Source: Escherichia coli
Lineage (GTDB): Bacteria; Pseudomonadota; Gammaproteobacteria; Enterobacterales; Enterobacteriaceae
Direction: 5' to 3' (one strand)
NCBI RefSeq assembly: GCF_001677475.2
Contig: NZ_CP015229.1
DNA: 64,000 nucleotides
The translations under genes and the position numbers were made by a program. Positions 12,962 to 50,753 of the stretch are shown one piece after another (within the stretch, counting starts at the first letter, position 1; every line of letters starts with the position of its first letter). Under the pieces are notes generated by a model, which was not told the DNA's origin, did no database searches, and was given only the letters and a program-made list of their open reading frames with translations.

Positions 12962-13134
12962 CGGCAAATTGCAACGTGTAGTTTCAATCGCTGAAAAATC
13001 AGGCAAATGAACAATTTTGGAAAACCGCTCGCATTCAGTAGTTATTCATGTCACGGTTTCCTGTAAAGTGGTGTTATAAAATGAACTACTAATAGACCCC
13101 ATACATTCAGGGAATTGTTATGTTCAAGGAGAGG

Positions 13135-13479: not shown

Positions 13480-13480
13480 T

Positions 13481-13873: not shown

Positions 13874-13875
13874 AT

Positions 13876-13915
13876 AAAAAACGGCAGGATATTATCTCCT
13901 GCCGTTTATCTTTTT
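13876..13915. terminator. Bidirectional terminator between yfeD and gltX
   Basis: AAAAAACGGCAGGATATTATCTCCTGCCGTTTATCTTTTT hairpin with flanking A/T runs. Confidence 0.8.
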
Positions 13916-13924
13916 ACACGCTAA

Positions 13925-15340: not shown

Positions 15341-15553
15341 GAAATGGCCTTACGTTTAGAAAGATGCCGACAACCGGCAAATCCTGGAAAAATTGAGTGG
15401 GCGATATTCTATCACTCCCGCCTGATTCCTCAATGTAGTTCGGGTTTCTACCTTAAGCATTATTGTTTTCGTTGACAAATTGCGCAACACGGTCTGTTTT
15501 GCGATCATCTTGCTTAAATTTACGACGAACGAACAATTTCTTTAGAAAATGCG

Positions 15554-15581
15554 TTGACTCATTTTGAACTCTCCCTATAAT
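15554..15581 (+). promoter_or_regulatory. Sigma70 promoter of the Val-Val-Lys tRNA operon
   Basis: TTGACT (15554-15559), 16-nt spacer, TATAAT (15576-15581), GC-rich discriminator GCGACTCC, AT-rich upstream region. Confidence 0.7.
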
Positions 15582-15598
15582 GCGACTCCACACAGCGG

Positions 15599-15674
15599 GG
15601 GTGATTAGCTCAGCTGGGAGAGCACCTCCCTTACAAGGAGGGGGTCGGCGGTTCGATCCCGTCATCACCCACCA
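15599..15674 (+). tRNA. valU: tRNA-Val (UAC)
   Basis: GGGTGATTAGCTCAGCTGGGAGAGCACCTCCCTTACAAGGAGGGGGTCGGCGGTTCGATCCCGTCATCACCCACCA, 76 nt. Confidence 0.95.
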
Positions 15675-15718
15675 ACTACTTTATGTAGTCTCCGCCGTGT
15701 AGCAAGAAATTGAGAAGT

Positions 15719-15794
15719 GGGTGATTAGCTCAGCTGGGAGAGCACCTCCCTTACAAGGAGGGGGTCGGCGGTTCGATCCCGTCATCACCCACCA
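15719..15794 (+). tRNA. valX: tRNA-Val (UAC), second identical copy
   Basis: Identical 76-nt sequence to the first Val tRNA after a 44-nt spacer. Confidence 0.95.
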
Positions 15795-15798
15795 CTTC

Positions 15799-15874
15799 GG
15801 GTCGTTAGCTCAGTTGGTAGAGCAGTTGACTTTTAATCAATTGGTCGCAGGTTCGAATCCTGCACGACCCACCA
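15799..15874 (+). tRNA. lysV: tRNA-Lys (UUU)
   Basis: GGGTCGTTAGCTCAGTTGGTAGAGCAGTTGACTTTTAATCAATTGGTCGCAGGTTCGAATCCTGCACGACCCACCA, 4 nt after the second Val tRNA. Confidence 0.95.
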
Positions 15875-15878
15875 ATGT

Positions 15879-15907
15879 AAAAAAGCGCCCTAAAGGCGCT
15901 TTTTTGC
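15879..15907 (+). terminator. Intrinsic terminator of the tRNA operon
   Basis: AAAAAAGCGCCCTAAAGGCGCTTTTTTGC hairpin plus T-run. Confidence 0.85.
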
Positions 15908-15982
15908 TATCTGCGATTTGCGAAATTGCCTGATGCGCTTCACTTAGCAGACTACTATTTCCGGCAATTCCTGTCTCCTCAC

Positions 15983-16867
15983 CTACTGTGTCAATGCAGC
16001 CAACAGCTTAACCATCGCGGGCGTCACCTGCTGTGTTTCATAAACAATATATAAATCTGCAGGGATGCGCTGTTTGAGCGGACGGAAAATGACACCTGGC
16101 CAGTTCATTTGTGCGTAGCTGTCCGCTATCAATGTGATACCAATGCCCATACTGACCATGGCGAGTACCGTTTGCGGTTCATTAACTTCGCGAATAACAA
16201 CCGGTGAAAATCCCACCTGCTGGCAAACTCGCTGCAAAAAATCCCAGTCAGTGTACACGGGCGGCATTGTAACAAAATACTCGTCACGTAGCGCTTCCAG
16301 CGGGACGGTGGAAAATGATGAGAAATGATGCTCTTCAGGCATCGCCACCAGAAACGCCGATTCATGCAACCGTAAGCTGGTAAAACCTGCAGGTGGTTCT
16401 GTTGCCATTCGCCAGATACCGGCATCGAGTTCACGTCGTTCCAGCAGGGTCATTTGCATCGCGGGCATCTTTTCGCGAAAAAGAACGTCAACGTTAGGAT
16501 TTTCCCTGAGGAATCGCCGCATAACCGGGCGCATCCGTCCCCACATTGCCGTTCCCACTACGCCGAGTTCAATCCGCCCTGCTTCTCCCCGACCTATTTG
16601 TTCAACCCGAGCCAATACATTATTAGCATTCACCAGCAATCGACGCGATTCTTCCATCAAGATTTTGCCCGCGTGTGTCAGTACGACGCTGCGCGAATGG
16701 CGAATAAAAAGCTGCGTGCCGAGTTGATTTTCCAGCTCTTTAATATGAATACTGAGCGGAGGCTGAGACATATTTAAACGCGCTGCTGCGCGACCAAAAT
16801 GCAACTCTTCCGCTACGGCAAGAAAATAACGGAGCAACTTAAGATCTGTTCTGTATACGCGTTCCAT
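15983..16867 (-). CDS. xapR: LysR-family activator of xanthosine catabolism XapR
   Basis: ORF track 299 aa; start chosen at MERVYRTDLKLLRYFLAVAEELHFGRAAARLNMSQPPLS (294 aa), LysR HTH. Confidence 0.9.
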   Translation of the reverse strand: MERVYRTDLKLLRYFLAVAEELHFGRAAARLNMSQPPLSIHIKELENQLGTQLFIRHSRSVVLTHAGKILMEESRRLLVNANNVLARVEQIGRGEAGRIELGVVGTAMWGRMRPVMRRFLRENPNVDVLFREKMPAMQMTLLERRELDAGIWRMATEPPAGFTSLRLHESAFLVAMPEEHHFSSFSTVPLEALRDEYFVTMPPVYTDWDFLQRVCQQVGFSPVVIREVNEPQTVLAMVSMGIGITLIADSYAQMNWPGVIFRPLKQRIPADLYIVYETQQVTPAMVKLLAALTQ

Positions 16868-17087
16868 AATTAAGTGCTCCATATAATAAATACATCGTAT
16901 TAAATTATCATGGCATAAAGTATTTCACCACCAGATATCCGACATACATAAACACAATGGATAATATACCTGGTAATACATTTGGTACAGGAATAGGCAA
17001 GCGCACGATTGTAAACAAAGCACCAATGCCAAAACCAACGCCGGAAGAAAATAAAATATCTTTCACTAATTAACCTTTATCATAAAA

Positions 17088-17110
17088 GCAGCTCTGAAGA
17101 GCAGAGCTGC
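17088..17110 (-). terminator. Terminator hairpin downstream of xapB
   Basis: GCAGCTCTG-AAGA-GCAGAGCTGC inverted repeat followed by a T-run on the minus strand. Confidence 0.6.
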
Positions 17111-17118
17111 GAATCCTT

Positions 17119-18375
17119 TTAATGAGCCACCGCTCGATGCTTTATCTTTTCAGGGTCATGATTATATTTAAACCCAAAGAAAAATATCACTGCGAGAAAA
17201 AGAGCATATCCTGCAAACACCAGCCAGATAGTTTGCCAGTCTTTTACGCCATCCACCGAAAAGTAATCTACTGCCATACCGCTCAGAATCGAGCCAATCC
17301 ATGCGCCGACACCATTTACCATGGTCATAAAGAGCCCCTGCGCGCTGGCACGAATGCTGGAATCAACTTCCTGTTCGACAAATACCGAACCAGAAATATT
17401 GAAGAAATCGAATGCACAGCCATAAACAATCATCGACAGCAGCAGCAAAATAAATCCGGTTGTTGACGGATCGCCATAGGCGAAGAAGCCAAAGCGCAGC
17501 GTCCAGGCCACCATACTCATCAGCATGACGGTTTTAATTCCAAATCGCTTTAAAAAGAATGGGATAGTCAGTATAAAGCCCACTTCTGCCATCTGTGAAA
17601 CCGACAGTAAAATGGAGGGATATTTCACCACAAAACTGTCAGCAAACTCCGGGTTACGGGCGAAATCATGTAGGAACGGATTACCAAAAACGTTGGTAAT
17701 TTGCAGTACCGCACCCAGCATCATGGCAAAGAGGAAAAAGATGGCCATGCGTGGATTTTTAAACAGCACGAAGGCATCCAGACCCAGCTTGCTGGCAAGC
17801 GATGTGGTCGTTTTTTTCTCCGCAACCGGAATCTTCGGCAAAGTCAGCGCATAAGCCGACAGCAGCAATGACGCACCGGACGCGATATACAGCTGCAGAC
17901 TACTCAATTCCAGATGCAGCAGGCTTACTGCCCACATCGCGACAATGAACCCCACCGTACCAAAAACGCGAATGGGCGGGAAAGCGGTCACCGGGTCAAG
18001 CCCTGCCTGGGCAAGACAGGAATAAGAGACGCTGTTCGATAACGCAATAGTCGGCATAAACGCCATCGCATTGACTAACATCACCCAAAACATCATATCC
18101 GGATCAGTTACGGATGCCGCATAAAAAAGTACGCCCGCACACACCAGGTGACATAGCATGTATGCACGTTCTGCGCGCAGCCATTTGTCTGCGATGATCC
18201 CCATTATACCAGGCATAATAATCGCGGCGATCCCTTTGGAACTGTAAACCATGCCAACATTAGCGCCGGTGAAATGAAGGGTATTAATCATGTAAGAACC
18301 GAGGGTAACCAGCCAGCTCCCCCAGATAAAATATTGCAAAAAGGACATTACCTTTAAGCGCAAAGCGATGCTCAT
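17119..18375 (-). CDS. xapB: Xanthosine permease XapB (MFS nucleoside:H+ symporter family)
   Basis: 418 aa, 12-TM-like ORF; MSIALRLKVMSFLQYFIWGSWLVTLGSYM. Confidence 0.95.
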   Translation of the reverse strand: MSIALRLKVMSFLQYFIWGSWLVTLGSYMINTLHFTGANVGMVYSSKGIAAIIMPGIMGIIADKWLRAERAYMLCHLVCAGVLFYAASVTDPDMMFWVMLVNAMAFMPTIALSNSVSYSCLAQAGLDPVTAFPPIRVFGTVGFIVAMWAVSLLHLELSSLQLYIASGASLLLSAYALTLPKIPVAEKKTTTSLASKLGLDAFVLFKNPRMAIFFLFAMMLGAVLQITNVFGNPFLHDFARNPEFADSFVVKYPSILLSVSQMAEVGFILTIPFFLKRFGIKTVMLMSMVAWTLRFGFFAYGDPSTTGFILLLLSMIVYGCAFDFFNISGSVFVEQEVDSSIRASAQGLFMTMVNGVGAWIGSILSGMAVDYFSVDGVKDWQTIWLVFAGYALFLAVIFFFGFKYNHDPEKIKHRAVAH

Positions 18376-18435
18376 AATCGTTTCCTTGTCGCATCATATG
18401 GCCTCACTCAGTGAGGCCGTTTATTGTTGTTTTAC

Positions 18436-19269
18436 TCAGGCAATTTTGCGCAGAAAGCCGCAAATAAGATTAATAAAGTTTTGCTTTGAGAGTTCCGCTG
18501 CTGCCAGCGTTTGGGCATGAGAAAGCTTCACGTCACTCAGACCTTCCGCCATGTTGGTAATCGCAGAGACCGCAACGACTTTAAGGTCGCAATGGCGAGC
18601 TGAAATAACCTCAGGCACCACAGACATACCAACAACATCCCCACCAATAATTTGCATCATGCGAATTTCCGCCGCAGTCTCGAAATTCGGCCCCGGATAC
18701 GAGACGAACACGCCCTCCGTCAGAGAGAAACCCTCTTCTTTTGCCACTTTTTGTAACAGTGCGCGGTATTCCGCATCGTAGGCATTTGCCAGTGAGAAGA
18801 AACGCTCGCCAAAACGATCATCGTTAAGACCCACCATCGGCGTACCTGGCATGGCGTTGATATGATCTTTCAATGCGACCAGGCTGCCTGCCCCCACTTC
18901 CGGACGCAGCGAGCCTGCCGCATTGGTGCAGAACAGTAGCTCGCAGCCCAGCAGCTTAAAGGTACGAATTGCGTCAGTCATAATGGTCATTCCACGACCT
19001 TCGTAGAAATGTCCGCGACCTTTCATACATACCACCGGTACGCCCTGGAGATGGCCCAGCACTAACTCCCCCGCATGACCATGTACCGTACTTACCGGGA
19101 AGCCCGGCAGCTTTTCGTAGGAAATTGCGACAGCGTTCTCAATCTGATCGGCCAGCGCGCCCAGCCCGGAACCTAAAATAAAGGCCACTCGTGGCGTGAA
19201 ATCAGGTTTATAAGTCTTGATAATATCTATGCAAAACAGCGGGTTATGAGAAAATTGAACCTGAGGCAT
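18436..19269 (-). CDS. xapA: Xanthosine (purine nucleoside) phosphorylase II
   Basis: 277 aa; PNP-family motifs (GSGLG, hexameric/trimeric PNP fold signature). Confidence 0.95.
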   Translation of the reverse strand: MPQVQFSHNPLFCIDIIKTYKPDFTPRVAFILGSGLGALADQIENAVAISYEKLPGFPVSTVHGHAGELVLGHLQGVPVVCMKGRGHFYEGRGMTIMTDAIRTFKLLGCELLFCTNAAGSLRPEVGAGSLVALKDHINAMPGTPMVGLNDDRFGERFFSLANAYDAEYRALLQKVAKEEGFSLTEGVFVSYPGPNFETAAEIRMMQIIGGDVVGMSVVPEVISARHCDLKVVAVSAITNMAEGLSDVKLSHAQTLAAAELSKQNFINLICGFLRKIA

Positions 19270-19517
19270 ATATATCCTTTTTCTGTAGGGTGGAATCTAA
19301 CGCCTTTTTATAGCGAGGTTGTCCCGGCTCTTACCAATACACTTTTCTCACGCATTCAATAGCGATTCGATATCGATGGATTTATATCTTTTCTCTATTA
19401 ATCCACGGTAAAAACTGTATTGGCGATATTAATTCCTTTGCATTAACAATATGTCGTTTTTAGCAAACCACTTTATTAAGCAATCTACTAATAACGATCG
19501 GCATAGGGAATTATGCT

Positions 19518-20282
19518 ATGAAAAAACATCTTTTAACTCTGACACTTTCCTCTATATTAGCGATACCTGTTATATCTCATGCAGAATTTAAAGGCGGTTT
19601 TGCAGATATCGGCGTGCATTATCTGGACTGGACCAGCCGGACTACCGAAAAATCGTCGACCAAATCACACAAAGATGATTTTGGTTATCTTGAAATTGAA
19701 GGTGGCGCTAACTTTAGTTGGGGAGAAATGTACGGGTTCTTCGACTGGGAAAACTTCTATAACGGTCGCCATAATAAACCAGGTAGCGAGCAGCGTTATA
19801 CCTTTAAAAATACCAACCGTATTTACCTGGGTGACACCGGATTTAATCTTTACCTGCACACGTATGGCACCTACGGGTCTGCGAATCGTGTGAATTTCCA
19901 CGACGATATGTTCCTGTACGGTGTCGGCTACAATTTCACCGGCAGCGGTTGGTGGTTCAAACCGTTCTTTGCTAAGCGTTATACAGATCAAACCTATTAC
20001 ACTGGCGACAACGGCTATGTCGCCGGCTGGGTTGCAGGTTACAACTTTATGCTGGGCAGCGAGAAATTCACTCTTACCAACTGGAACGAGTACGAGTTTG
20101 ACCGTGACGCTACCTATGCAGCGGGTAATGGCGGTAAAGAAGGGCTGAATGGCGCAGTTGCACTGTGGTGGAATGCAACATCACACATCACTACGGGGAT
20201 TCAGTATCGATATGCGGATGACAAACTGGGCGAAGATTTTTACCAGGATGCGATAATCTACTCCATCAAATTTAACTTCTGA
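19518..20282 (+). CDS. yfeN: Putative outer-membrane beta-barrel protein YfeN (Tsx-like)
   Basis: 254 aa; signal peptide MKKHLLTLTLSSILAIPVISHA; aromatic-rich strands and C-terminal ...IKFNF typical of OMP barrels. Confidence 0.85.
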   Translation: MKKHLLTLTLSSILAIPVISHAEFKGGFADIGVHYLDWTSRTTEKSSTKSHKDDFGYLEIEGGANFSWGEMYGFFDWENFYNGRHNKPGSEQRYTFKNTNRIYLGDTGFNLYLHTYGTYGSANRVNFHDDMFLYGVGYNFTGSGWWFKPFFAKRYTDQTYYTGDNGYVAGWVAGYNFMLGSEKFTLTNWNEYEFDRDATYAAGNGGKEGLNGAVALWWNATSHITTGIQYRYADDKLGEDFYQDAIIYSIKFNF

Positions 20283-33159: not shown

Positions 33160-34257
33160 TCAGGCGCTTTGTGCGAGAGCAAGTTCCTCATCGCGGGTTT
33201 CAATACGCTCGTCGCCGTTATACAGCCGCGCATGTTGCAGACCAACGAATAAACGCTCGCCACGTTGCGGGGCGTCGTCGCCGTGCATCACGACCGTCAG
33301 CGCTTCGTTGTACCACCCCAGCGGCTGCACGACTAATTGGGTGTAGTGGCCTTTCGGGCTGGCTTCCAGTACCTGTACCGGCAGCGGCGAATCGAGGCTG
33401 GTACGGCGGCTGATATCCACTTCCCACGGACGCAGGAAGAGATCCACCGGCCCCTGATACGCAGGTGTATAGCCCAGCGGCCAGCGATGTGCGCCAACAT
33501 GGAACTGCCCGCCGCGAATGGTTCCCTGCAGGCGGTTCACTTCGCCCATAAATTCGAGTACAAAACGGGTCGCTGGTTCGCGCCATACCTGGTCCGGTGC
33601 ATCAGCCTGCTCGATATTGCCCTGGCTCATCACCACTACACGATCGGCTACTTCGGTCGCTTCTTCCTGGTCATGGGTCACAAACACGCTGGTGAATTTC
33701 AGCTCTTCATGTAACTGACGCAGCCAGCGACGCAGCTCTTTACGCACCTGCGCATCCAGCGCGCCAAACGGTTCATCAAGCAGCAGAATTTGCGGTTCTA
33801 CAGCCAGCGCGCGCGCCAGCGCTACACGCTGTTTCTGGCCGCCGGAAAGCTGCGCCGGATAACGATCCGCCAGATGGGCAAGCTGCACCATCTCCAGCAA
33901 TTTTGTCACTTTCGCTTTGATCGCCGCGGCATTCGGGCGCTCGCGACGCGGCAGCACCGTCAGGCCAAAAGCGATATTGTCGAACACCGTCATATGACGG
34001 AATAGCGCGTAATGCTGGAACACGAAACCGACTTTACGGTCCCTCGCGTGCAGACGGCTGACATCGGTACCGTGAAAGCGAATTTGTCCGCTGGTTTGAT
34101 GCTCCAGCCCGGCAATAATGCGCAGCAGCGTGGTTTTCCCGGAACCGGACGGCCCCAGCAACGCGACCATCTGACCAGAAGGAATATCCAGTGAGATATC
34201 GTTCAGCACCTGGGTGCGACCAAACGACTTCTTAATATTGGCAATCTCAATGCTCAT
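33160..34257 (-). CDS. cysA: Sulfate/thiosulfate ABC transporter ATP-binding protein
   Basis: 365 aa; Walker [10 protein letters not shown], signature [15 protein letters not shown]. Confidence 0.97.
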
Positions 34258-35122
34258 GATGCTCCTCCTGCTGCGCGCGTTTTTCCTGATTCTCCAGGCG
34301 CCACTGCAACATACTCTTTAAAAACAAGGTGATAATCGCCATCAGCGTCAACAGCGCGGCGGCGGTAAAGGAGCCGACGGTGTTGTAGTCCTGCTCCAGC
34401 AATTCAATCTGTAACGGCAGCGACAGGGTTTCACCGCGAATCGAGCCGGAAACCACCGATACCGCGCCAAACTCGCCAATCGCGCGGGCGTTGGTCAGCA
34501 CCACGCCGTAAAGCAGCGCCCAGCGAATATTCGGTAATGTGACGCGACGGAACATCTGCCAGCCGGACGCGCCAAGCAAAATCGCCGCTTCGTCCTCCTG
34601 GCTGCCCTGGCTTAACATCACCGGCACCAGCTCGCGCACCACAAATGGACACGTCACGAAGATGGTGACCAGCACCATTCCCGGCCACGAGAACATAATT
34701 TGCAGGTTATGCTCGTCGAGCCAACCGCCCAGCGGGCCATTAGAGCCGTAGAACAGCAGATACACCAGACCGGCAACCACCGGCGATACGGCAAACGGAA
34801 TGTCCAGTAGCGTCAGCAGTAACTGGCGTCCAGGGAAGTTAAAGCGCGTCACCAGCCAGGCCAGCAGAATGCCGAACACCAGGTTCACCGGCACGGCAAT
34901 CAGCGCAATCATCACCGTCAGCCAGATGGCGTGCAGCATGTCCGGGTCAGCCAGATTCTGTATAACTGGCATCAGCCCTTTGCTGAACGCCTGTATGAAG
35001 ATATAAATCATCGGCACCAGCAGGATGAACGCCGATACCAGCATCCCGATGCCAATCAGAAACCATTTGCCCCAGTTAATCGGGCGCGCGTCATAACGCT
35101 TCAATTGTGTCACTTCCGCCAT
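34247..35122 (-). CDS. cysW: Sulfate/thiosulfate ABC transporter permease CysW
   Basis: 291 aa membrane ORF; 11-nt overlap with cysA. Confidence 0.95.
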
Positions 35123-35955
35123 TAATGACCTACCACACGCCGACCAAAGCGACTTTGCAGAGTGTTAATTGAGAACAGCAGCATCAGGGATGCCGCGAGG
35201 ATCACCGAAGCAATCGCGCTCGCCGCCGGGTAATCAAACTCCTGCAAGCGCACAAAAATCATCAGCGACGTAACTTCCGTCTTCCAGGCGATGTTCCCGG
35301 CGATAAATATCACCGCGCCAAACTCACCAAGACTACGGGTAAACGACAGCGCAATACCGGCAATCAGCGCCGGAGAGAGTTCTGGCAGCACCACTTTGCA
35401 GAAGCTCTGCCAGCGCGTTGCACCGAGCGTTTCTGCCGCTTCTTCATATTCCGGCCCTAACTCTTCCAGCACCGGCTGCACGGTACGCACTACAAACGGA
35501 ATGCTGGTAAAGGCCATCGCCACCGCAATCCCCAGCCAGGTATAGGTGACTTTGATATCAAACTTCGCCAGCCATTCACCGTAAAAACCGTTCACGGAAA
35601 AGAGCGAGGCCAGCGTTAAACCGGCCACTGCCGTTGGCAGCGCAAAGGGTAAATCCATCAGCGCATCAAGCAGCGTGCGGCCAGGGAAGCGATAACGGGT
35701 TAAGATCCACGCCATCAGCAGGCCGAAAACACCGTTAAAAATCGACGCGACAAACGCCGACAGCAGCGTCACTTTATAGGCCGCGACCACCTGCGGATTG
35801 GTGATCACCTCCCAGTACTGCGCCCAGCTCATCTCAGAAAGCTGCATCACCAGCGCGGAGAGCGGCAGTAACAAAATCAGGCACACAAACAGCAGACTGG
35901 TGCCGAGGCTCAGGGTAAAGCCCGGCAACACGCGTCGTGAAGAAACTGCAAACAT
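35122..35955 (-). CDS. cysU: Sulfate/thiosulfate ABC transporter permease CysU (CysT)
   Basis: 277 aa membrane ORF; start/stop overlap with neighbours. Confidence 0.95.
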   Translation of the reverse strand: MFAVSSRRVLPGFTLSLGTSLLFVCLILLLPLSALVMQLSEMSWAQYWEVITNPQVVAAYKVTLLSAFVASIFNGVFGLLMAWILTRYRFPGRTLLDALMDLPFALPTAVAGLTLASLFSVNGFYGEWLAKFDIKVTYTWLGIAVAMAFTSIPFVVRTVQPVLEELGPEYEEAAETLGATRWQSFCKVVLPELSPALIAGIALSFTRSLGEFGAVIFIAGNIAWKTEVTSLMIFVRLQEFDYPAASAIASVILAASLMLLFSINTLQSRFGRRVVGH

Positions 35956-36971
35956 TACTTACGCCCCGCCGCTAACAGCTTGTCTAACTCGCCGCCGCTG
36001 GTGAAGTGGGTTTTCATCACTTCCGGCCAGGAGCCAAATTTGTCTTCCACGCGGAACAGATCGGTCTGCGGGAATTTGTCTTTCAGTTTGTCCATGACTT
36101 CCGGGTTATTTACGCGGTAGTAATAGTCGGTGATGATGGTTTGCGCCTGCGGGCTGTAGAGCCAGTTCAGGTAGGCTTTTGCTGCTTTTTCCGTACCGTT
36201 GGCCTGCACGTTTTTATCGACCCACGCCACCGGGAATTCCGCCAGAATGTTGGTTTTCGGAATCACCACTTCAAAGCCCTGCGCTTCATACTGTTTACGG
36301 ATGTTGTTCACTTCCGACTCGAAGCTGATCAGCACATCGCCCAGGCCGCGCTCGGCAAAAGTGGTGGTCGCGCCACGACCGCCGGTATCGAACACTTCAA
36401 CGTTTTTCAGGAACTGGGTCATAAACTGTTCGGTTTTGGCTTTATCGCCACCGTCAGCTTGATCCGCTACGCCCCATGCCGCCAGATAGGTATAACGCGC
36501 GTTACCCGACGTTTTCGGGTTCGGGAAAATCAGCTTCACGTCGGAGCGCACCAGGTCGTTCCAGTCGTGGATATTCTTCGGGTTGCCCTTACGCACCAGG
36601 AAGCCCATGGTGGAGTAGAACGGCGAGCTATTATTCGGCAGGCGCGACTGCCAGTCTGCCGGGATCAGCTTGCCTTTGTCATGCAGGATCTGTACGTCAG
36701 TCACCTGGTTATAAGTGACAACGTCGGCTTTTAAGCCCTGCAAAATTGCCAGCGCCTGTTTTGATGACCCGGCATGAGATTGTTTTATCGTCAGTTTGTC
36801 GCCGCCGTTATCTTTTGCCCACTGCTGTTCAAACGGGATATTCAGGGCGGCAAACAGCTCGCGGGAGACGTCATAAGAACTGTTCAGCAGTTCCGTTGCC
36901 TGTACATGGCCCGCCAGCAGCAGAGAAGCGACCAGCGCGAGTGAGTTCTTTTTCAGTAAGTTAACGGCCAT
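35955..36971 (-). CDS. cysP: Periplasmic thiosulfate-binding protein
   Basis: 338 aa; signal peptide [25 protein letters not shown]. Confidence 0.95.
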
Positions 36972-37274
36972 TGCGCACCCTTATAAATTTAATGACTTTC
37001 TAATAGTCATCATATTTATAACGGACGTGAAAGGAGTAACGGTTTTATATACCGTTTGGTGATTTGGAAGTTGAAAAGGGAATAAGAACTTGGTTCAACA
37101 GGCGTAATTGTTGCAGTCAGTTTGGACACGGACAGCGCGGAGAAACCGGAGCGTACACATAGTACGTGAGGATTTCGAGCACTGCCCGGGGCAAAAATGA
37201 CAAATAAAATAGCCTGGTGAACTTAGTTCAAGACGAAATCCTCCCCACACATGCAGGGAGGAAACAGAGGTGAA

Positions 37275-38066
37275 TCAGATGCCGACGCTAACCGTCTCCG
37301 GCAGTGTGCTGCCGCCATCAATCACATTCTGTGTACCGGTTAAATAACTTGATTCATCCGATGCGAGGAAGGCTGCCAGTTCGCCGACTTCCAGCGGATC
37401 GGCGAGGCGACGCATCGGGATTGCTTTTGCCATTTCAGTCAGCACCGATTCTGGATCTTCCGGGTTCGACTGGCGGGCAATGCTTTCCGCCATTGGCGTG
37501 CGAACGTATCCCGGGCAGATGGCGTTAACGCGAATACCAGACTGCGCGTACTCCACCGCCAGCGATTTAGTCAGGCCAACAATCGCCGCTTTCGTTAAGG
37601 CGTACGCCGTTTCACCCGGATCGGCCACCATATCGCCAGTGACCGAAGACATCATCACAATGCGACCATCTTTGCGGGCAATCATCTCCGGCAGCACCGC
37701 CTTCGTGACGTTCCATACGCCTTTAATATTGATATCAATATGGAAATCGCGATCTTCATCGCTCATATCGAGGAAACTGCCCAGACGACAAACGCCTGCG
37801 TTATTCACCAGGATATCAATGCGCCCTTCTTTTTCCTTCGCGCGCTTGATAGCTGCGGCTACCGACGCCGGGTCACGCACATCGGCGACAACCGCCGTAC
37901 AGCGATGACCACGACCACACAGTTCGTCCGCCAGTTTTTCGATCTCAGGGGAGATATCCAGCAAGATTAGGTTTGCGCCATGACGCGCAAAAGTTCTGGC
38001 AATTCCTTCGCCAATTCCCTGCAATGCGCCCGTAATCAGTGCTGTCTTGCCCGTGAGTTTACCCAT
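37275..38066 (-). CDS. ucpA: Short-chain dehydrogenase/reductase UcpA
   Basis: ORF track 285 aa; AAGGAGA RBS supports start at MGKLTGKTALITGALQGIGEGIA (263 aa), classical SDR TGxxxGIG and YxxxK motifs. Confidence 0.92.
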   Translation of the reverse strand: MGKLTGKTALITGALQGIGEGIARTFARHGANLILLDISPEIEKLADELCGRGHRCTAVVADVRDPASVAAAIKRAKEKEGRIDILVNNAGVCRLGSFLDMSDEDRDFHIDINIKGVWNVTKAVLPEMIARKDGRIVMMSSVTGDMVADPGETAYALTKAAIVGLTKSLAVEYAQSGIRVNAICPGYVRTPMAESIARQSNPEDPESVLTEMAKAIPMRRLADPLEVGELAAFLASDESSYLTGTQNVIDGGSTLPETVSVGI

Positions 38067-38194
38067 TTTAATGCTCTCCTTGTTAATACAGAGCGTTACA
38101 CTCCATTCCCTCTGAAAATACAGGATAAACAAAATATTGCTGCGGATCAGCTCACTAATTCAGGAAAATCTCAATTCAGTCGCTGCTTTATGCA

Positions 38195-39052
38195 TCATTT
38201 CAGGCGTTGCGTTAGCTCACTGCTGCGCTCAATCATTTTCAATGACTCCACATCATTGAGTTGCACAAGGCCAACAAACAGTAAATCGGTAACAGAATTT
38301 TGCGCCGTGCGGGTGGACATCGACGAGCTGCGCCATTCGGTTTCGCCAGAAACGGTATCGAGGGTGAAATGCGCCAGCCGCCGCAGCGGGGAATCGGTTA
38401 ACGAGGTAATGGCAATCACCGTTGCCCCCTGCTTTCGCGCTGCCTCGGCGCACAGCACAATCTCTTTTTTACTGCCGCTGTAAGAGATAGCGATTTGTAC
38501 ATCGCCTTTTTTTAGCGCCTGGGAAACGGTGGCTTGTACATGTGTGTCGGCTTCGCAGGCCACGCGATAGCCAATTTTCATCAGTTTGAATGAAAGATCG
38601 CGCCCCACCAGCGCCGACCCGCCCAGGCCCGTTATCTGGATAAACGGTGCTTTACTGATGACCTCAATGATTTTTTGCAGCCGCGCGTAGTCGAACAACG
38701 CGCAGGTTTGCTCCAGCGCCAGTTCTTTTTCGCGATTCAGTTTGCGGGCAATCACTTCCAGCGAATCATCACTGGTAATCGAACTGTGCAGGTGCAGCGC
38801 CGTGGCATTCGTTTTCTCCCGGCTGGCACTGTATTCGCCAATTAACGCCATACGCAATTCAGTAAATCCTTGCGCGCCGAGCTTCTGGGCAAACTTCACA
38901 ATACTCGACTGACTGATGCCGAGCTGTTTCGCCATCTTGCGCGAAGAAACGGATTTCAGCTCACTCACGTTGTCCTGCAGAAAGTCAGCAATTTTTTGCT
39001 CGTTCTCGGTAAATTCACTTTCCGCATTGCGTATTTTCGTCAGGTACAACAT
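38195..39052 (-). CDS. murR: RpiR/SIS-family repressor MurR
   Basis: ORF track 370 aa; start chosen at [24 protein letters not shown] (285 aa), HTH plus SIS domain; divergent from murQ. Confidence 0.9.
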
Positions 39053-39215
39053 CTTCCACTCTCCTGGGCTGGCAGCAAAAATTCCGCTTAAGTTCTTATG
39101 ACGCTCTTCACACTCTGCGAGTGTAGACTCAATGATTCCTTTAAGTCTGTCAATTCGGGATATATGATTCCATACATCTGCAATTATTTGATCGTAAATA
39201 GTAAGGTCACCACCG

Positions 39216-40112
39216 ATGCAACTTGAAAAGATGATTACCGAAGGCTCGAACGCCGCCTCGGCTGAAATTGACCGCGTATCAACGCTGGAAATGTGCCGGA
39301 TTATCAACGATGAAGATAAAACCGTGCCGCTTGCCGTTGAGCGCGTACTGCCGGATATCGCCGCAGCGATCGATGTTATCCACGCCCAGGTAAGCGGCGG
39401 CGGGCGTCTGATTTATCTCGGTGCGGGAACATCAGGTCGTCTGGGGATTCTGGATGCCAGCGAATGTCCGCCGACCTACGGCGTGAAACCGGGCCTGGTA
39501 GTTGGTTTGATTGCTGGCGGCGAATATGCTATTCAGCACGCGGTGGAAGGCGCGGAAGATAGCCGGGAAGGTGGTATTAATGATCTGAAAAATATCGGCT
39601 TAACCGCGCAGGATGTGGTGGTTGGTATTGCGGCCAGCGGACGCACGCCGTATGTGATTGCCGGACTGGAATACGCACGCCAGCTTGGCTGCCGCACAGT
39701 GGGAATTTCCTGTAATCCCGGGAGCGCTGTTTCAACTACCGCAGAGTTTGCCATTACGCCGGTAGTTGGGGCCGAAGTGGTCACTGGTTCTTCTCGAATG
39801 AAAGCAGGTACGGCGCAGAAACTGGTGCTCAACATGCTCTCCACCGGGCTGATGATTAAATCCGGCAAAGTGTTCGGCAACCTGATGGTCGATGTGGTCG
39901 CCACCAACGAAAAACTGCATGTGCGCCAGGTCAATATCGTTAAAAACGCCACCGGATGTAATACCGAACAAGCAGAAGCGGCGTTAATTGCCTGCGAACG
40001 CAACTGTAAAACTGCCATTGTGATGGTGCTGAAAAATCTCGATGCCGCAGAAGCTAAAAAACGCCTGGATCAACACGGCGGCTTTATTCGTCAGGTTTTA
40101 GACAAGGAATAA
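39216..40112 (+). CDS. murQ: N-acetylmuramic acid 6-phosphate etherase
   Basis: 298 aa; [41 protein letters not shown] domain. Confidence 0.97.
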
Positions 40113-40115
40113 CCC

Positions 40116-41540
<1,425 letters not shown>

Positions 41541-41545
41541 TATCA

Positions 41546-41635
41546 TGAAACGGACAATGCTCTATCTTTCTCTGCTGGCTGTTAGCTGCAGCGTCAGCGC
41601 CGCAAAATACCCTGTTCTGACAGAAGGTAGTTGAT
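41546..41635 (+). pseudogene. yfeW: 29-codon ORF encoding only a signal-peptide-like sequence; probable 5' remnant of yfeW (PBP4B)
   Basis: MKRTMLYLSLLAVSCSVSAAKYPVLTEGS then stop; in the reference gene order a ~430 aa penicillin-binding protein follows murP here, but only ~180 bp separate murP and yfeX in this window. Confidence 0.5.
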
Positions 41636-41663
41636 CAAGTATATGCGGCGTTAAAGCAGTAAT

Positions 41664-41700
41664 AAAAAGGCCAGTCAGTAATGTTACTGCCTGGCCTTTA
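41664..41700. terminator. Bidirectional terminator hairpin before the yfeX stop
   Basis: AAAGGCCAG-TCAGTAATGTTACTGC-CTGGCCTTT long inverted repeat. Confidence 0.7.
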
Positions 41701-41719
41701 ATCAATGAATCAGAAACGC

Positions 41720-42703
<984 letters not shown>

Positions 42704-42714
42704 TCAGACGCAAA

Positions 42715-43290
42715 TTAACGCCGCCAGATAATTTTACTGACTTTCCAGTTTTTCAGGGTATCGTCAGAAGGCATTAACCCTTCAGGACCACTCCATTCCC
42801 CGCTGAACTGGTAGCTAATATGTTGACTGCCTTCGGCTTTACATTCGACGGCACGATTATCATCACTGTCGGCCTTTTGGCAATTGCCAAATGCTTTGCT
42901 GTAAAGGTCGCTAAACGGTGTACCGATTTTAACACCGGTGTCAGCAGCAATATCGCTATCCAGCACATCAATGCGGCTGATCGTGCCTTGATCGCCGTTA
43001 ATCACCATCGCCACGTTGTCGCCTTTCATCACTTCAAAAAAGCGCACCACGTTGCCGTTCGCGGTTTTCATTCCGCTGCGCAGGCGATAATCGCCATCAA
43101 GCGCATCGGCAATGGCTTGTTCTTGCAGTGGTGTGGACGCCGTTAATTCACCCACGCCCTGCTCGCTCACTTTGGTGGACGAACCAAACCAGTTCCACGG
43201 GTTAGCGGCAGACCAGTTAACTGACGACATCGTGGAACAGCCGGCCAGCATCAACGGCATAGCGCATAACATTAAACGCAGCGATTTCAT
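42715..43290 (-). CDS. yfeY: Lipoprotein YfeY (DUF1131)
   Basis: 191 aa; lipobox MKSLRLMLCAMPLMLAGCS. Confidence 0.88.
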   Translation of the reverse strand: MKSLRLMLCAMPLMLAGCSTMSSVNWSAANPWNWFGSSTKVSEQGVGELTASTPLQEQAIADALDGDYRLRSGMKTANGNVVRFFEVMKGDNVAMVINGDQGTISRIDVLDSDIAADTGVKIGTPFSDLYSKAFGNCQKADSDDNRAVECKAEGSQHISYQFSGEWSGPEGLMPSDDTLKNWKVSKIIWRR

Positions 43291-43350
43291 GTCACTTCCT
43301 TTGGTTATTCAATAACGTTGCTTGGAGTGCAAATTCACCAAAAAGTGCCG

Positions 43351-43800
43351 TTATTCTTTTTCTTCATTAAAACAAGCGCGTAAACGTCGATTGGTCAGCA
43401 GCCAGATTAACGCCACAATATCCGCCACTACCAGCGCCAGACCGATACCGCTAACGGATTCACCGTTCAGCCACAGCCACGGTTGCCAGCAAAGTAAAAC
43501 CACTTGCGCTAACAGCAACAGAAAATAGAGCCCATGCCAGGTGCGAGGAAACGTAGCCCGCCGACCGCTCAACAAAAACGCCAGCACCGCCGGAATGCCA
43601 GGAATCAGCCCCAGCCAGAAATTATCGTGATCGGGATAAAACAGATTTAGCAGCGCAGTACCCTGCTCGCGCGACGCACCGGCAATGACAAACAGCACCC
43701 AGGTTCGCGCCTGAAGCAATAGCACAAGCCAGAAGAGCAAGGGTAAACGCAGGCGACCGTGCGCATCATAATGGACAGGATGAAACTCAGTACTCTTCAT
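43351..43800 (-). CDS. yfeZ: Inner-membrane protein YfeZ
   Basis: 149-151 aa hydrophobic ORF ([29 protein letters not shown]); exact start (43806 or 43800) uncertain. Confidence 0.8.
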
Positions 43801-44212
43801 CTTCAATCAAACGCTTACCCAGACTCAGCACGTCGGCGTGTTCATATCCCAGGCGTTCATACATTCCGAGCACCATGTCGTTATCTTCCGGCACATTGAT
43901 CTGAATTTTCGGGCAGCCGCGAGCAATCAGCTTTTTCTCCAGCCGGTTAAGCAACGCATTGGCAATCCCACGCCCACGAAACTCAGGATGCACGCCAAGA
44001 TAATAAGCAGACCCGCGATGCCCGTCATAACCGCCCATCACCGTTCCGACCACTTCACCGTTCACCTCAGCGACCAGAAACAAACTGACGTCATGGTTCA
44101 TCTTACGCTCGATGTCCATTTCCGGATCGTTCCACGGACGCAGCAAGTCGCAACGCTCCCAAAGGGTGATTACCTCTTCGAAATCTTCCTGGCGAAATAC
44201 GCGTATCTCCAT
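43787..44212 (-). CDS. ypeA: GNAT-family acetyltransferase YpeA
   Basis: ORF track 178 aa; start chosen at [24 protein letters not shown] (141 aa); overlaps the yfeZ start by about 14 nt. Confidence 0.88.
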
Positions 44213-44425
44213 GGTATTCGTTACCTTTTTGCGGGTTAAAAGGCTGATTATGGCGTGAACGGTCGAATTAGCCAATATCTGACGAAAATCGGTTGAAAAA
44301 GTGGCATAATGGGGAGTTGTCAACTATTGAAATGAAAAGTAAAACAATTCTCAACAGCAAACCGTCGTAACGGATTACGCGATACGATATAACATCTGGA
44401 ACTTTATTATTACAACTCAGGCCGT

Positions 44426-45295
44426 ATGAGCACTTTTAAACCACTAAAAACACTCACTTCGCGCCGCCAGGTGCTGAAAGCCGGTTTGGCTGCCCTGACG
44501 TTGTCAGGAATGTCGCAAGCCATCGCCAAAGACGAACCTTTAAAAACCAGCAACGGACACAGCAAGCCGAAAGCCAAAAAATCTGGCAGCAAACGTGTCG
44601 TTGTTCTCGATCCAGGCCACGGTGGGATCGATACCGGAGCGATCGGACGCAACGGTTCGAAAGAAAAACATGTGGTGCTGGCGATTGCTAAAAACGTCCG
44701 TTCCATTTTGCGTAATCATGGGATTGATGCGCGTTTAACGCGTTCTGGCGATACGTTTATCCCACTTTACGATCGCGTTGAAATCGCCCATAAACATGGC
44801 GCAGATCTGTTTATGTCAATTCATGCCGATGGCTTTACCAACCCGAAAGCTGCCGGTGCTTCGGTATTTGCCCTCTCTAACCGTGGGGCAAGTAGCGCAA
44901 TGGCGAAATACCTGTCTGAACGCGAAAACCGCGCCGATGAAGTTGCCGGTAAAAAGGCGACTGACAAGGATCACCTATTGCAGCAAGTGCTGTTTGATCT
45001 GGTGCAAACCGATACTATTAAAAACAGCCTGACGCTTGGCTCGCATATTCTGAAAAAGATTAAGCCGGTGCATAAACTGCACAGCCGCAACACCGAACAA
45101 GCCGCGTTTGTGGTGTTGAAATCGCCGTCGGTTCCTTCGGTGCTGGTGGAAACCTCGTTTATCACCAACCCGGAAGAAGAGCGACTGTTAGGCACGGCGG
45201 CGTTTCGTCAGAAAATCGCCACAGCGATTGCTGAAGGCGTGATCAGTTATTTCCACTGGTTCGACAACCAGAAAGCACATTCGAAAAAGCGATAA
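44426..45295 (+). CDS. amiA: N-acetylmuramoyl-L-alanine amidase AmiA
   Basis: 289 aa; Tat-type signal (SRRQVLKAGLAALTLSG), amidase_3 domain. Confidence 0.95.
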   Translation: MSTFKPLKTLTSRRQVLKAGLAALTLSGMSQAIAKDEPLKTSNGHSKPKAKKSGSKRVVVLDPGHGGIDTGAIGRNGSKEKHVVLAIAKNVRSILRNHGIDARLTRSGDTFIPLYDRVEIAHKHGADLFMSIHADGFTNPKAAGASVFALSNRGASSAMAKYLSERENRADEVAGKKATDKDHLLQQVLFDLVQTDTIKNSLTLGSHILKKIKPVHKLHSRNTEQAAFVVLKSPSVPSVLVETSFITNPEEERLLGTAAFRQKIATAIAEGVISYFHWFDNQKAHSKKR

Positions 45296-46198
<903 letters not shown>

Positions 46199-46203
46199 CT
46201 CCC

Positions 46204-47256
46204 TCACCCCCATTCCCGCATCCGCTGATGCAACGTCAACGACGGCTTCTCGGCAAACAGCTGCTGGTAATCCGTGGCAAATTGCCCCAGATGCCAGAAT
46301 CCCCACTGCATGGCGGCGTCTTTTACCGTTGTGCTTTGCGACCACGGGCTTATCAGTTCGCGGCGTACGGCATTCAGGCGAATGCGTTTCAGCCACGCGT
46401 TCGGGCCAATGCCTAAAATAGCGTGAAACGCGTTTTGTAGCGTGCGGCGACTGACATGCAGTTGATTACACAAATCCAGCACCGTCACCGGTTCGGACAT
46501 GTTTTCCAGCACATATTCACGGGCGCGGGAAAGTAATCTACGGTAACTCTGATGACTGATGCTTTCCGCCGTCACCATTGGTTGCGCTTCTTCCAGCATC
46601 GCCCCCATCGCCATTAGCAAATTATCCCCCAGCACTTTTCGCACTGCAGGCTGATGGAGATTTTCCGGGTTCTCGCAAAACGTCGCCAGCGCCTGTTGGA
46701 CAAAGCCCCACAGCGCGGCTTTATGCTGCTCTTTCACTTCCAGCGCCGACTGGCTACGCAGCATATGTAATACCCGATCCGGATTATGCAAAAAGTTAGC
46801 CTGACGGGTGATGACATCTTCAGAAAGCACTACGCCCAGGATCGTGTAATCGTCCGGCGTACTTAATTCAAACTCAGTGCCACCGGGGCGCGTCGCTATT
46901 TCTGCGCTTCCCAGACATTGCGAACCGATAAATCCCTGCTCACCGCGCGTCGCCGGAATGCCAAACCAGAACGAGTTCGGCCAGACCAGGCACGACTGAC
47001 GCAGTGCCAGACCGGTGTATTCACGAAAAACCTGAATATCATCGAGTAGAATTTCCGTAAATTCACCATGAAACTTGCCCGGATGCAGCTGATCGTAAAT
47101 CTGCTGCCAGGCGGTAATCGTTAAAGCATGTTCATAGACATCCGTTGTCTGTCGTTGATGAACATTATCCACTTCGACCTTCGGCGTGAGCTTCAGGTTT
47201 TCGGGTAAGGGTTCATGATAAAGATGGTGCAAATTGGCTGTACGGGTCTTTTTCAT
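46204..47256 (-). CDS. eutR: AraC-family activator of the eut operon
   Basis: 350 aa; C-terminal AraC HTH; stop is 5 bp from the convergent hemF stop. Confidence 0.95.
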
Positions 47257-47301
47257 GATGTTAATGCCAGGTGTTGTAGGACACCCGGCACCTCCGACAG
47301 G

Positions 47302-47802
47302 TTAATGGGGCTTGAGACGATAACGACTACTGCGTTTACGTAACGTCCCGGCAGAAAAGAGCTGTTCGAGCGCATTTCTGGCTTTTTCCAGCGGCCAGCC
47401 AAAGTGGGCAGCCACTTCTCCTGCCGTCATTCCCTGACGTACTGATGTTAACAGCGCCAACAACTCGTCAGCAGATTCCGCGACGATAACTGGCGCGTCG
47501 GGTTCCTTTACGGGTTGCTTCGGCTGGCGGTTAAAGCCAGTAACCAGCCACTGGGTGTCATCGTCTGGCCGACCGATCTCCTTACGGCTGATGACACGCC
47601 CGGTACGCATCGCGGCAGCACAACCTGCGTCCAGCGCAGCACGACACGCCGCCAGATCGCCTTCCACCACCAGCGTTAAGCGACCAGGGTCAAGCACTTC
47701 GTGACTGAGCAGACGAACGTTAGCTGCTTTGAGCATGGCATCCGCTGCATCTATCGCGGCGACCATGCCGTCCACTTCCAGCAATCCCAGTGCATTGATC
47801 AT
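47302..47802 (-). CDS. eutK: Microcompartment shell protein EutK (BMC domain plus C-terminal nucleic-acid-binding-like domain)
   Basis: MINALGLLEVDGMVAAIDAADAMLKAANVRLL (BMC fold); start 47802 or 47808. Confidence 0.92.
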   Translation of the reverse strand: MINALGLLEVDGMVAAIDAADAMLKAANVRLLSHEVLDPGRLTLVVEGDLAACRAALDAGCAAAMRTGRVISRKEIGRPDDDTQWLVTGFNRQPKQPVKEPDAPVIVAESADELLALLTSVRQGMTAGEVAAHFGWPLEKARNALEQLFSAGTLRKRSSRYRLKPH

Positions 47803-47814
47803 CGGCAACCTCCA

Positions 47815-48474
47815 TTACGCACGCTGGATTGGATTACGCGCGATTTCCAGCACTGCATCGGTAAAGGCGTTACAGGCCGCTTTACACGCTGCCTGGCTAC
47901 CGGTTAAAAATGCTGCCGAGTAGTTAGTTTCAGACGGTGGCGGGACATAGGTCACCAGCTGTACGTCGGCAGATTTCAGGGCTGCATCAATGCCGTAGGT
48001 CGCTTCCAGCGGCGGTGCCACCAGATACGCCATCGGATCGCCAAGCGTGATCCCGGCGGTTGATGAGAGATAAGAACCGGTACGCGAAACTACATGTGCC
48101 AGGAAGGCTGTATTTTCTGCGTCATTAGCCCACTGGAAAGCAGCGCCATTTTCAATATGCGCAACCATCGCATCCAGACCTGCACGCACTTCCGCCGGGT
48201 TTGGCCCACCAAGCATAATCAGCACTTCACCGGCAGTCGGTGACGGTCCGTGTGCAGCGCCCGCATACAGCGAGCGACCATACACCACTTCGACCATCGC
48301 CTGTTTGGTCGCTTCGTCAGCCGCAATGTAGGTTACGTCATCGGAGTCGGCAGAAATCAGCCCGAGGCTACGAATATGCGGCGGCAATTTCAGTTCACGC
48401 GCAAATTCGGCGTTAACGGAGGCAATCACCCGCATGGCGGTGACAGACGGTCGAATCAAATCTAAAGCTGGCAT
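47815..48474 (-). CDS. eutL: Microcompartment shell protein EutL (tandem BMC domain)
   Basis: 219 aa. Confidence 0.95.
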
Positions 48475-48483
48475 GATGCCTCC

Positions 48484-49371
48484 TTATCGGGTCATGTTGA
48501 TGCCGGATGCTTTCTGCTCCAGCATACGTTTCGCCAAATCCACAATGACGGCTGCGGCTTCAACCGGCGGTGTGCCGCCCTGGTGAATGTTAGAGATACA
48601 GGTGCGATCGGCCTCAACGGTGGTCGCCATACGCGGCGAGTAAACGGCGTAGCAGGAGAGGCTTTCTGACTGCCCTAATCCCGGGCGTTCGCCCACCAGC
48701 AGGATCACCACTTTCGCGCCGAGGATCTCACCGATCTGATCTTCAATCTTCACGCGACCATAACGAACAAAGAATGGCGTACCGACTTTCAGCCCGGCCT
48801 GTTTCAGGCCCGCCATCAGCGGCGGCAGGATCTCTTCGTAGTTCACGGTGATCGCATCAGTTGACAGGCCATCAGAAATAACGACCTGCACGTCCGGATT
48901 GGCAACACACTGCGCTTTCAGCGCTTCAACAGCTTCTGCACTCAGGCGGCGGCCCATATCCGGGCGAGTCAGGTAGAGATTTTTGTCGCTAATTTCAGAG
49001 CGTACTTCCAGCAAGCCCTGCGCTTTCACCCACTCTTCCGGCACTTCTTTAAGTACGGTATCTTTCGAACGAGAGTGATCGGCCAGGAAACGCAGCAACG
49101 CCTGGGTACGCGGACGCGGACCGGCACGACCGGTACAAACGCGGGCCACGGTGCTGCGACGCAGTTCTGTTAACACATCCGCACGATGTGGGTTTTCAAC
49201 ACCAATCCACGCTTTTGCTTCCGCAGAACCTAAATCCAGCGCGCAGCTTTCCGAGGTCACCGATGCCGCACAGGTGGTGGTGGCGCACTTTGCTTCTGAC
49301 GGCTCGGGGGCCGTTTGTCCCATTGACGCCATCACGCTGCGTACAATTTCTTCAATCTGTTTTTGATCCAT
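48484..49371 (-). CDS. eutC: Ethanolamine ammonia-lyase small subunit
   Basis: 295 aa; [18 protein letters not shown]. Confidence 0.96.
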
Positions 49372-49391
49372 GATGTGTTATCTCCGCGTCA

Positions 49392-50753
49392 TCAGAAGAA
49401 CAGTGACGGATCGCCCGCCCGTTTGGTCAGGCGACCGTTTGCCATAATGCCCATGCTTTCCAGCCAGCGCTCAAACTCCGGTGACGGGCGCAGGTTGAGT
49501 AACTGACGCACAGTGGCAGTGTCGTGGAAGGCCGTGGTCTGGTAGTTGAGCATGATGTCATCGCCTAACGGCATCCCCATGATGTAGTTGCAGCCTGCGG
49601 TGGCGAGCAGGATCATCAGGTTTTCGTTGAGGTTCTGGTCAGCGTCAGCGTGGTTGGTGTAACAGCAGTCACAGCCCATAGAGATGCCGCTCAGCTTGCC
49701 CATAAAGTGATCTTCTAAGCCCGCACGGATAATCTGACGGTCATTGTAGAGATACTCCGGCCCAATAAAGCCGACCACGGTGTTGACGATAAACGGATCG
49801 TAATGACGCGCCAGCCCATAGTTACGTGCTTCCATCGTCACCTGGTCTGCGCCGAAGTTAGCGCCAGCGGATAGCGCTGAACCTTGTCCGGTTTCGAAGT
49901 AGAGGCAGTTTTCCCCGGCGATACGGTTGAACTCTGCACCCACTGCGCGCGCTTCGTCGAGCATCGCCAGTTCCACACCAAACTCTTTCAGCCCTTTTTC
50001 ACTGCCACAGATACTCTGGAAAATCAGCCCGCCTGGTGCGCCACGACGAATCGCTTCGATCTGGGTGGTGACGTGCGCCAGTACGCAGCCCTGAGTTGGG
50101 ATGTTGAATTTGTCGATCACGCTATAGATGGTGTCCAGCACGCGGCTTAAGTTTTCCACGTCGTCAGTTACCGGGTTGACGCCGATCACCGCATCGCCCA
50201 CCCCGAAGGAAAGCCCTTCGTAGATTTGCGCGGCGATACTTTGCACGTCGTCACGGGTGTCATTTGGCTGCAAACGGGCGCTGAAGGTGCCCGGAATACC
50301 GATGGTGGTATTGGCCTTTTTGATTACCGGCATTTTCTTCGCGCCGTAGATCAGGTCCGCGTTGGAGCAAATCTTCGCTACCGCCGCGACCACTTCCGAG
50401 GTCAGCCCTTTGCGGGTAAAGGCAATGTCGTCCACGCTGGTTTCATCGCTCAGCACATACTCACGCAGTTCGCTGATGCTCCAGTTTTTAATCTGGTTGT
50501 AGGCCGTTTCGTTAACGTCGTCCTGAATCAGCCGCGTCACGCAGTCATCTTCATAGGCAATCACCGGATTATTGCGGATGTCCGCTACGGTCATTTCCGA
50601 CAACACCTGCTTTGCCGCCACGCGCTCCTGTGAGCTTGCCGCTGCAACGCCTGCCAGCACATCCCCCGAACGCAGTTCGTTGGCTTTAGCCAGCACCTCT
50701 TTTACATCCTTAAACTGATATACATTGCCGAACAATGTGGTCTTTAGTTTCAT
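49392..50753 (-). CDS. eutB: Ethanolamine ammonia-lyase large subunit
   Basis: 453 aa; MKLKTTLFGNVYQFKDVKEVLAKANELRSGDVLAG. Confidence 0.97.
   Translation of the reverse strand: MKLKTTLFGNVYQFKDVKEVLAKANELRSGDVLAGVAAASSQERVAAKQVLSEMTVADIRNNPVIAYEDDCVTRLIQDDVNETAYNQIKNWSISELREYVLSDETSVDDIAFTRKGLTSEVVAAVAKICSNADLIYGAKKMPVIKKANTTIGIPGTFSARLQPNDTRDDVQSIAAQIYEGLSFGVGDAVIGVNPVTDDVENLSRVLDTIYSVIDKFNIPTQGCVLAHVTTQIEAIRRGAPGGLIFQSICGSEKGLKEFGVELAMLDEARAVGAEFNRIAGENCLYFETGQGSALSAGANFGADQVTMEARNYGLARHYDPFIVNTVVGFIGPEYLYNDRQIIRAGLEDHFMGKLSGISMGCDCCYTNHADADQNLNENLMILLATAGCNYIMGMPLGDDIMLNYQTTAFHDTATVRQLLNLRPSPEFERWLESMGIMANGRLTKRAGDPSLFF

Follow-up and report, generated by a model that had tools for sequence, protein, structure and literature searches.

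In Escherichia coli yfeW stands third in the murQ operon, which MurR controls, and its product, PBP4B, is a penicillin-binding protein of low affinity (PMC5061867). A further source attributes to a study cited therein that the DD-carboxypeptidase activity of PBP4B is not essential for growth, and gives a rate of synthesis of 20–30 molecules per generation (PMC4916385). Under laboratory conditions the loss of PBP4B would be expected to be all but neutral. The gene order in strain K-12 is murR / murQ-murP-pbp4b / yfeX, with pbp4b (yfeW; penicillin-binding protein 4B) measuring 1,305 bp (L001 3246–4550).

In Bacillus subtilis the corresponding genes are ordered murQ-murR-murP-amiE-nagZ, and the gene in the position of pbp4b is amiE (ybbE), which encodes a MurNAc-L-alanine amidase (PMC5061867). 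Over 402 aa, intact E. coli PBP4B shares 54% identity with a protein of Bacillus spizizenii (L033 9632–10954, minus strand) whose gene follows murP directly and precedes one for a beta-N-acetylhexosaminidase-like (NagZ-like) protein; with 764 bits the Bacillus protein passes the cut-off (385) of the NCBIfam PBP4B equivalog model. By analogy E. coli PBP4B/YfeW may be a MurNAc-L-Ala amidase, instead of or besides a DD-carboxypeptidase, although in the literature the E. coli protein is a low-affinity PBP / DD-carboxypeptidase.

The DNA analyzed here (the window) is a stretch of 64,000 nucleotides from an E. coli genome. It contains murR (38195–39052, minus strand) and murQ (39216–40112), both full length, followed by an intact murP of 474 aa (40116..41540, plus strand; stop codon 41538–41540) and, in convergent orientation, an intact yfeX of 299 aa (41720..42619, minus strand), which is annotated as yfeX in all comparators. 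For murR, murQ and murP, the products exceed the cut-offs of their NCBIfam equivalog models by a wide margin (for MurP, 943 bits on NF007152 against 516), as YfeX does that of a superfamily model for Dyp-type peroxidases (300.6 bits on TIGR01413, Dyp-type peroxidase family). A reading of the window made from its sequence only, without database searches (the sequence-only reading), had expected a yfeW gene of roughly 1.3 kb between murP and yfeX and had put the gap at about 180 bp. Both statements hold: the gap measures 179 bp (41541..41719), and in K-12 the full-length gene occupies this place. The same reading had allowed that the reference might itself possess just a short ORF here, which is not the case.

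At a distance of 4 nt from the murP stop, an ATG (41545–41547) begins an ORF of 29 codons that closes with TGA (41632–41634) and encodes the peptide MKRTMLYLSLLAVSCSVSAAKYPVLTEGS. The ORF thus occupies 41545..41634 on the plus strand; the sequence-only reading had found it behind murP and quoted the same peptide, and its coordinates (41546..41635) were one position too high. It had also noted a plausible signal peptide, and by homology this is the signal peptide of pbp4b, MKRTMLYLSLLAVSCSVSA. An ORF of 29 codons means little by its length, since 6 kb of sequence yields 82 ORFs of 20 aa or more; it is homology, as judged from alignment and profile search, that makes the remnant real. The first 81 nt (41545..41625, plus strand), which specify the signal peptide and ∼8 mature residues, align without gaps and with two mismatches to the 5′ end of K-12 pbp4b (L001 3246–3326), and also without gaps to the intact allele of strain SI-NP020 (L004 2746–2826). 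The encoded peptide matches positions 1–27 of the NCBIfam PBP4B model (NF002968, equivalog; E = 9.4e-6) with 24.7 bits, which is below the whole-protein cut-off of 385 bits; the intact SI-NP020 allele scores 893 bits. The position is also that of PBP4B: directly 3′ of murP, in the murQ operon, and convergent with yfeX.

The sequence-only reading proposed an internal deletion that had spared the 5′ end of the gene and the downstream terminator. Alignments with K-12 and eight other intact E. coli alleles support a single deletion of 1,184 bp with the hairpin downstream kept, but more of the gene survives than the 5′ end: the last 37 nt (41626..41662, plus strand) are also present and in their native frame read VVDQVYAALKQ, followed by the native TAA (41660–41662). 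Both ends of the remnant, 81 nt on the 5′ side and 37 nt on the 3′ side, are homologous to the intact gene in nine E. coli strains. The missing bases, L004 2827–4010 (K-12 L001 3327–4510), fall between positions 41625 and 41626, and this one event accounts for the whole difference between the window and intact alleles of the type found in SI-NP020 and 2014C-3338 (L004, L005). Because 1,184 leaves a remainder of two on division by three, the 3′ stub is out of frame relative to the 5′ stub and a TGA is encountered two codons beyond the junction, so that the remnant ORF comprises 27 native PBP4B codons plus two codons at or after the junction. Compared with K-12 pbp4b, the window retains the same locus, the homologous 81 and 37 nt and the same signal peptide; it lacks the 1,184 internal bp, the reading frame and all catalytic motifs. 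Codons 28–422 of 433 are removed, including SNTK (residues 102–105) and HTG (371–373), and neither serine active-site motif of the beta-lactamase/PBP fold (SxxK; K/H-T/S-G) is left in the remnant. Since the active-site motifs are lost with these codons, the pbp4b allele of the window is, on its sequence, null.

Alignment with the reference, which the sequence-only reading recommended for defining the endpoints and any microhomology, places the junction at 41625/41626 with microhomology of at most 2 bp (GT). In intact alleles the left endpoint is flanked by ...CTGACAGAA/AGTTCGCC and the right endpoint by ...TATGGTTG/GGTAGTTGATC (the slash marks the endpoint). The junction in the window, ...CAGAA/GGTAGTTGA, is a blunt join with zero shared bases, while five of nine sampled deletion haplotypes, ST131 included, read ...CAGAAAGT/AGTTGA, which permits the 2-bp GT overlap. 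A search of 40 nt to either side of the endpoints revealed no direct repeat in register, the longest direct match being 7 nt and out of register; nor was an inverted repeat found in register at the endpoints. The lack of an in-register repeat and the overlap of at most 2 bp (GT) in the A-type junction argue against a repeat-mediated (homology-dependent) deletion. Given endpoints without a repeat, we infer illegitimate joining, either independent of homology or via the 2-bp microhomology.

We consider it very probable that the locus is a pseudogene remnant: that a single ancient deletion in pbp4b, which arose once and spread or persisted by homologous recombination, abolished the PBP4B product and was tolerated. 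Nothing in the analysis contradicts the pseudogene reading. In the murQ-murP-pbp4b operon, the 1,184-bp deletion in the third gene shifted the frame and brought an early TGA into play. Because its start codon is located 4 nt past the murP stop, on a transcript shared with murP, the remnant ORF may still be translated. Its product would be a pre-peptide of 29 residues consisting of a Sec-type signal peptide and ∼10 further residues, none of them catalytic. Taking the 64-kb window as the basis, the strain would be without PBP4B, with uptake and catabolism of MurNAc (murR, murQ, murP) untouched. Homologous recombination would then have spread or maintained the deletion in many E. coli lineages, and the dispensability and very weak expression of PBP4B would explain why the deletion was tolerated. 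The resemblance to the Bacillus protein at the amiE position belongs to the gene that was lost and not to the remnant; by analogy, the deleted gene may have been an AmiE-type muropeptide amidase feeding MurP.

Comparison with K-12 gives three gaps: the 1,184 bp within pbp4b, a single AAG codon, and a 182-bp segment containing REP sequences. The additional AAG (Lys) codon stands right before the pbp4b stop in K-12 (L001 4543–4545; between 41657 and 41658 of the window). The 182-bp insert lies between the pbp4b stop and the hairpin (L001 4556–4737; between 41667 and 41668) and carries REP-like palindromes (GCCGGATAAGGCGTTCACGCCGCATCCGGC); an incomplete second copy of the terminator hairpin bounds it. 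The insert is absent from the window and from all eight other intact alleles sampled, and the AAG codon is absent from most. SI-NP020 and 2014C-3338, together with four further intact alleles (L013–L015, L017), have neither, their gene being 1,302 bp long and separated from yfeX by 57 bp; in O157 (L012) and ECOR29 (L016) the insert is missing and the gene is still 1,305 bp. On this sampling of alleles, insert and AAG codon are peculiarities of K-12, separate from the deletion event in pbp4b. A comparison confined to MG1655 exaggerates the difference, because these two features are particular to K-12.

The state of the locus outside E. coli was examined by a scan of species-representative genomes (GTDB) for the active-site motif, followed by tblastn. 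The scan gave 59 matches, none of them in a record titled Escherichia coli; the pattern fits all nine intact E. coli alleles. The gene is intact and in full murP-pbp4b-yfeX order in E. whittamii and in a Citrobacter sp., and C. sedlakii has murR-murP-pbp4b-yfeX with the gene likewise intact. Escherichia sp. MOD1-EC7003 and E1V33 have an intact pbp4b beside murP (at least murP-pbp4b), and murP is paired with pbp4b at loci in Enterobacter, Lelliottia, Huaxiibacter and Superficieibacter as well. An exact-pattern scan of the species-representative genomes for the junction returned zero matches, by which the genome of the window is not itself one of the representatives. Since outgroups keep pbp4b intact and no species representative has the junction, the deletion is, on these comparisons, the derived state and confined to E. 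coli. One record encountered here, DXKH01000140.1 (L038, ‘MAG: Citrobacter sp. HRGM_Genome_0066’), is a contig that shares 95–97% identity with the window across 12.5 kb; the MurP, PBP4B and YfeX that it encodes are 98–99.7% identical to those of E. coli. It resembles E. coli and its Citrobacter label is probably wrong.

Within E. coli the deletion is common. A 651-bp query detected the contiguous junction in 1,272 of 5,426 complete genomes (an 83-bp query spanning the junction gave the same count), and at least 80% of pbp4b was present in 4,148; together the two classes comprise 5,420 of the 5,426 genomes. Among the carriers are E. coli C, O25b:H4-ST131 and B95.deltaA, a BL21(DE3) derivative. 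In every carrier inspected, PGAP marks an 87-nt stub as pseudo, with the label ‘hypothetical protein; incomplete; partial in the middle of a contig; missing C-terminus’. The remnant is thus a common pbp4b pseudogene allele that is known already through public annotation; the literature searched for yfeW/PBP4B contained no paper on this deletion allele. The PGAP-marked murP–yfeX pseudogene (E. coli C, B95.deltaA, ST131, ∼1,270 genomes) has the junction, the 29-codon ORF, the linked SNP described below and the hairpin in common with the window, and differs from it by point differences: in the 83-bp segment that spans the junction, identity to the window is 98.8% for ABWA45 and 92.8% for the ST131 type. 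In B2-type deletion haplotypes (L003, L009, L011) the remnant ATG stands 2 nt closer to the murP stop (TGATTATG as against TGATATCATG, window 41541–41544), and position 41626 is A in place of G.

Annotators should name the ORF a pbp4b pseudogene and not a ‘hypothetical protein’, and those who study PBP4B or the scavenging of MurNAc in carriers (the BL21 derivative, ST131) should keep the absence of the gene in mind. The loss is otherwise of little consequence: what is missing, in about a quarter of sequenced E. coli, is one redundant, non-essential class C PBP of very low abundance.

The mildly interesting angle is population-genetic, namely that one deletion allele, to which a SNP is linked, is found on many recombined backgrounds. 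The SNP is at 41638 (plus strand), where the window has A, a synonymous change of CAG to CAA in the old frame. In the gapped alignment every deletion haplotype (nine of nine) has A at this position and every intact E. coli haplotype (nine of nine) has G; the junction, too, falls at the identical base in the nine deletion haplotypes sampled, among which the window is counted. The perfect linkage of 41638 A to the deletion favors a single origin, and these alignments argue for a pbp4b deletion that arose once. Over the left (murP) flank of non-B2 strains, the deletion strain 135 differs from the intact strains TUM20902 and PKF4 at 1 of 1,400 nt, and the deletion strain ABWA45 differs from the intact strains K-12 and ECOR29 at 12 of 1,400; the differences between strain 135 and TUM20902 lie mostly within ∼30 nt of the junction. 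As judged from these flank comparisons, the surroundings of the deletion allele are reshuffled by recombination and not clonal. The simplest reading of the sequences is that an old allele has been moved by homologous recombination, or that the intact gene has been re-imported into deletion backgrounds.

The flanks of the window itself are ∼2% divergent from every comparator. Against E. coli C no tract of low divergence, the sign of a recent import, was detected near the junction, divergence continuing at ∼2% up to the junction. When the window was compared with the 5,426 complete E. coli genomes, the best identity was 97.4% over 16–20 kb (window 1–20000 and 34000–50000); identity to other Escherichia species was 92.6–94%. 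By these values the window is E. coli proper, from a deep or poorly sampled lineage without a close relative among complete genomes. Presence of the deletion allele in so divergent a lineage speaks to the age or mobility of the allele.

Such a distribution could also be that of an old presence/absence polymorphism, carried by recombination across deep E. coli lineages (those of E. coli C, the BL21 derivative, ST131 and the window) and held at a frequency of ∼23% by selection rather than drift. A reason for selection can be imagined: loss of a periplasmic MurNAc-L-Ala amidase of the AmiE type may alter the cell-wall fragments that are scavenged or released. We think this improbable.

A rival explanation is that the deletion is a recurrent hotspot event with many independent origins at the same two sites. 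The very different backgrounds that flank the deletion, some of them near-identical to intact haplotypes (as in the case of strain 135 and TUM20902 above), and its occurrence in E. coli C, the BL21 derivative, ST131 and the divergent lineage of the window are as one would expect of recurrence. However, the endpoints possess neither a direct nor an inverted repeat in register, and microhomology is limited to 2 bp at most; moreover, the nine sampled haplotypes agree on the junction to the base, every one of the 1,272 genomes has it contiguous, and the A at 41638 accompanies it in nine of nine deletion haplotypes and none of nine intact ones. We regard recurrence as very unlikely.

A different view of the remnant sees in the 29-codon ORF a small gene with a function, encoding a secreted or membrane micropeptide that selection has maintained since the deletion. 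Its start codon, its close spacing from the murP stop and its length of 29 codons are retained in nine of nine deletion haplotypes, and its N-terminus is a plausible signal peptide. Conservation of length nonetheless comes automatically with the deletion, because the stop is made by the junction itself. Only ∼10 residues would be left after cleavage of the signal peptide; PGAP calls the stub a pseudogene, and the gap holds no Rfam or other feature. The retained codons also vary: among variant codons of the 27, the deletion haplotypes have five non-synonymous and four synonymous alleles, as against one and three in intact E. coli, counts too small for significance. The non-synonymous variants in deletion haplotypes are V13I, A20T, Y22F, T26I and T26A, and residue 28 is either G or S. 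With five of nine variant codon alleles non-synonymous, the pattern leans in the direction of relaxed constraint on the retained codons. A maintained micropeptide seems to us very unlikely. An assembly or sequencing artefact, or a misremembered gene order, is refuted by the murP-pbp4b-yfeX order of K-12 and by the 1,272 independent complete genomes that carry the junction, and nothing in support of either was found.

Downstream of the pseudogene remnant, positions 41666–41699 form a predicted hairpin between the murQP(-pbp4b) operon and the convergent yfeX, with a run of T after it on the minus strand. The minimum free energy is −20.7 kcal/mol for the plus strand and −21.3 for the minus strand (z = −4.9 and −4.5, respectively), and none of 200 shuffled sequences was as stable. 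From its situation between two convergent transcription units, the modeled hairpin is probably a bidirectional terminator. A consensus terminator scan of 41400–41800 made no call, the hairpin having been overlooked because of an internal mismatch and a weak T-run on the plus strand. An Rfam scan of 41000–42200 (E ≤ 1) returned no match.

Two further observations concern the upstream genes. Within murQ, a patch at 39400–39800 of the window contains 13–20 SNPs per 200 bp relative to E. coli C, SI-NP020 and K-12, while the adjoining region at 40000–40600 contains 0–5 SNPs per 200 bp relative to the same three strains; the hypervariable patch suggests a recombination mosaic within murQ. In ST131 strain 2822 (L003 1–420) the repressor gene murR is wholly absent: ucpA abuts murQ and there is no counterpart of window positions 38217–39125. 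Loss of murR together with the pbp4b deletion was seen in this single ST131 genome; the window keeps murR.
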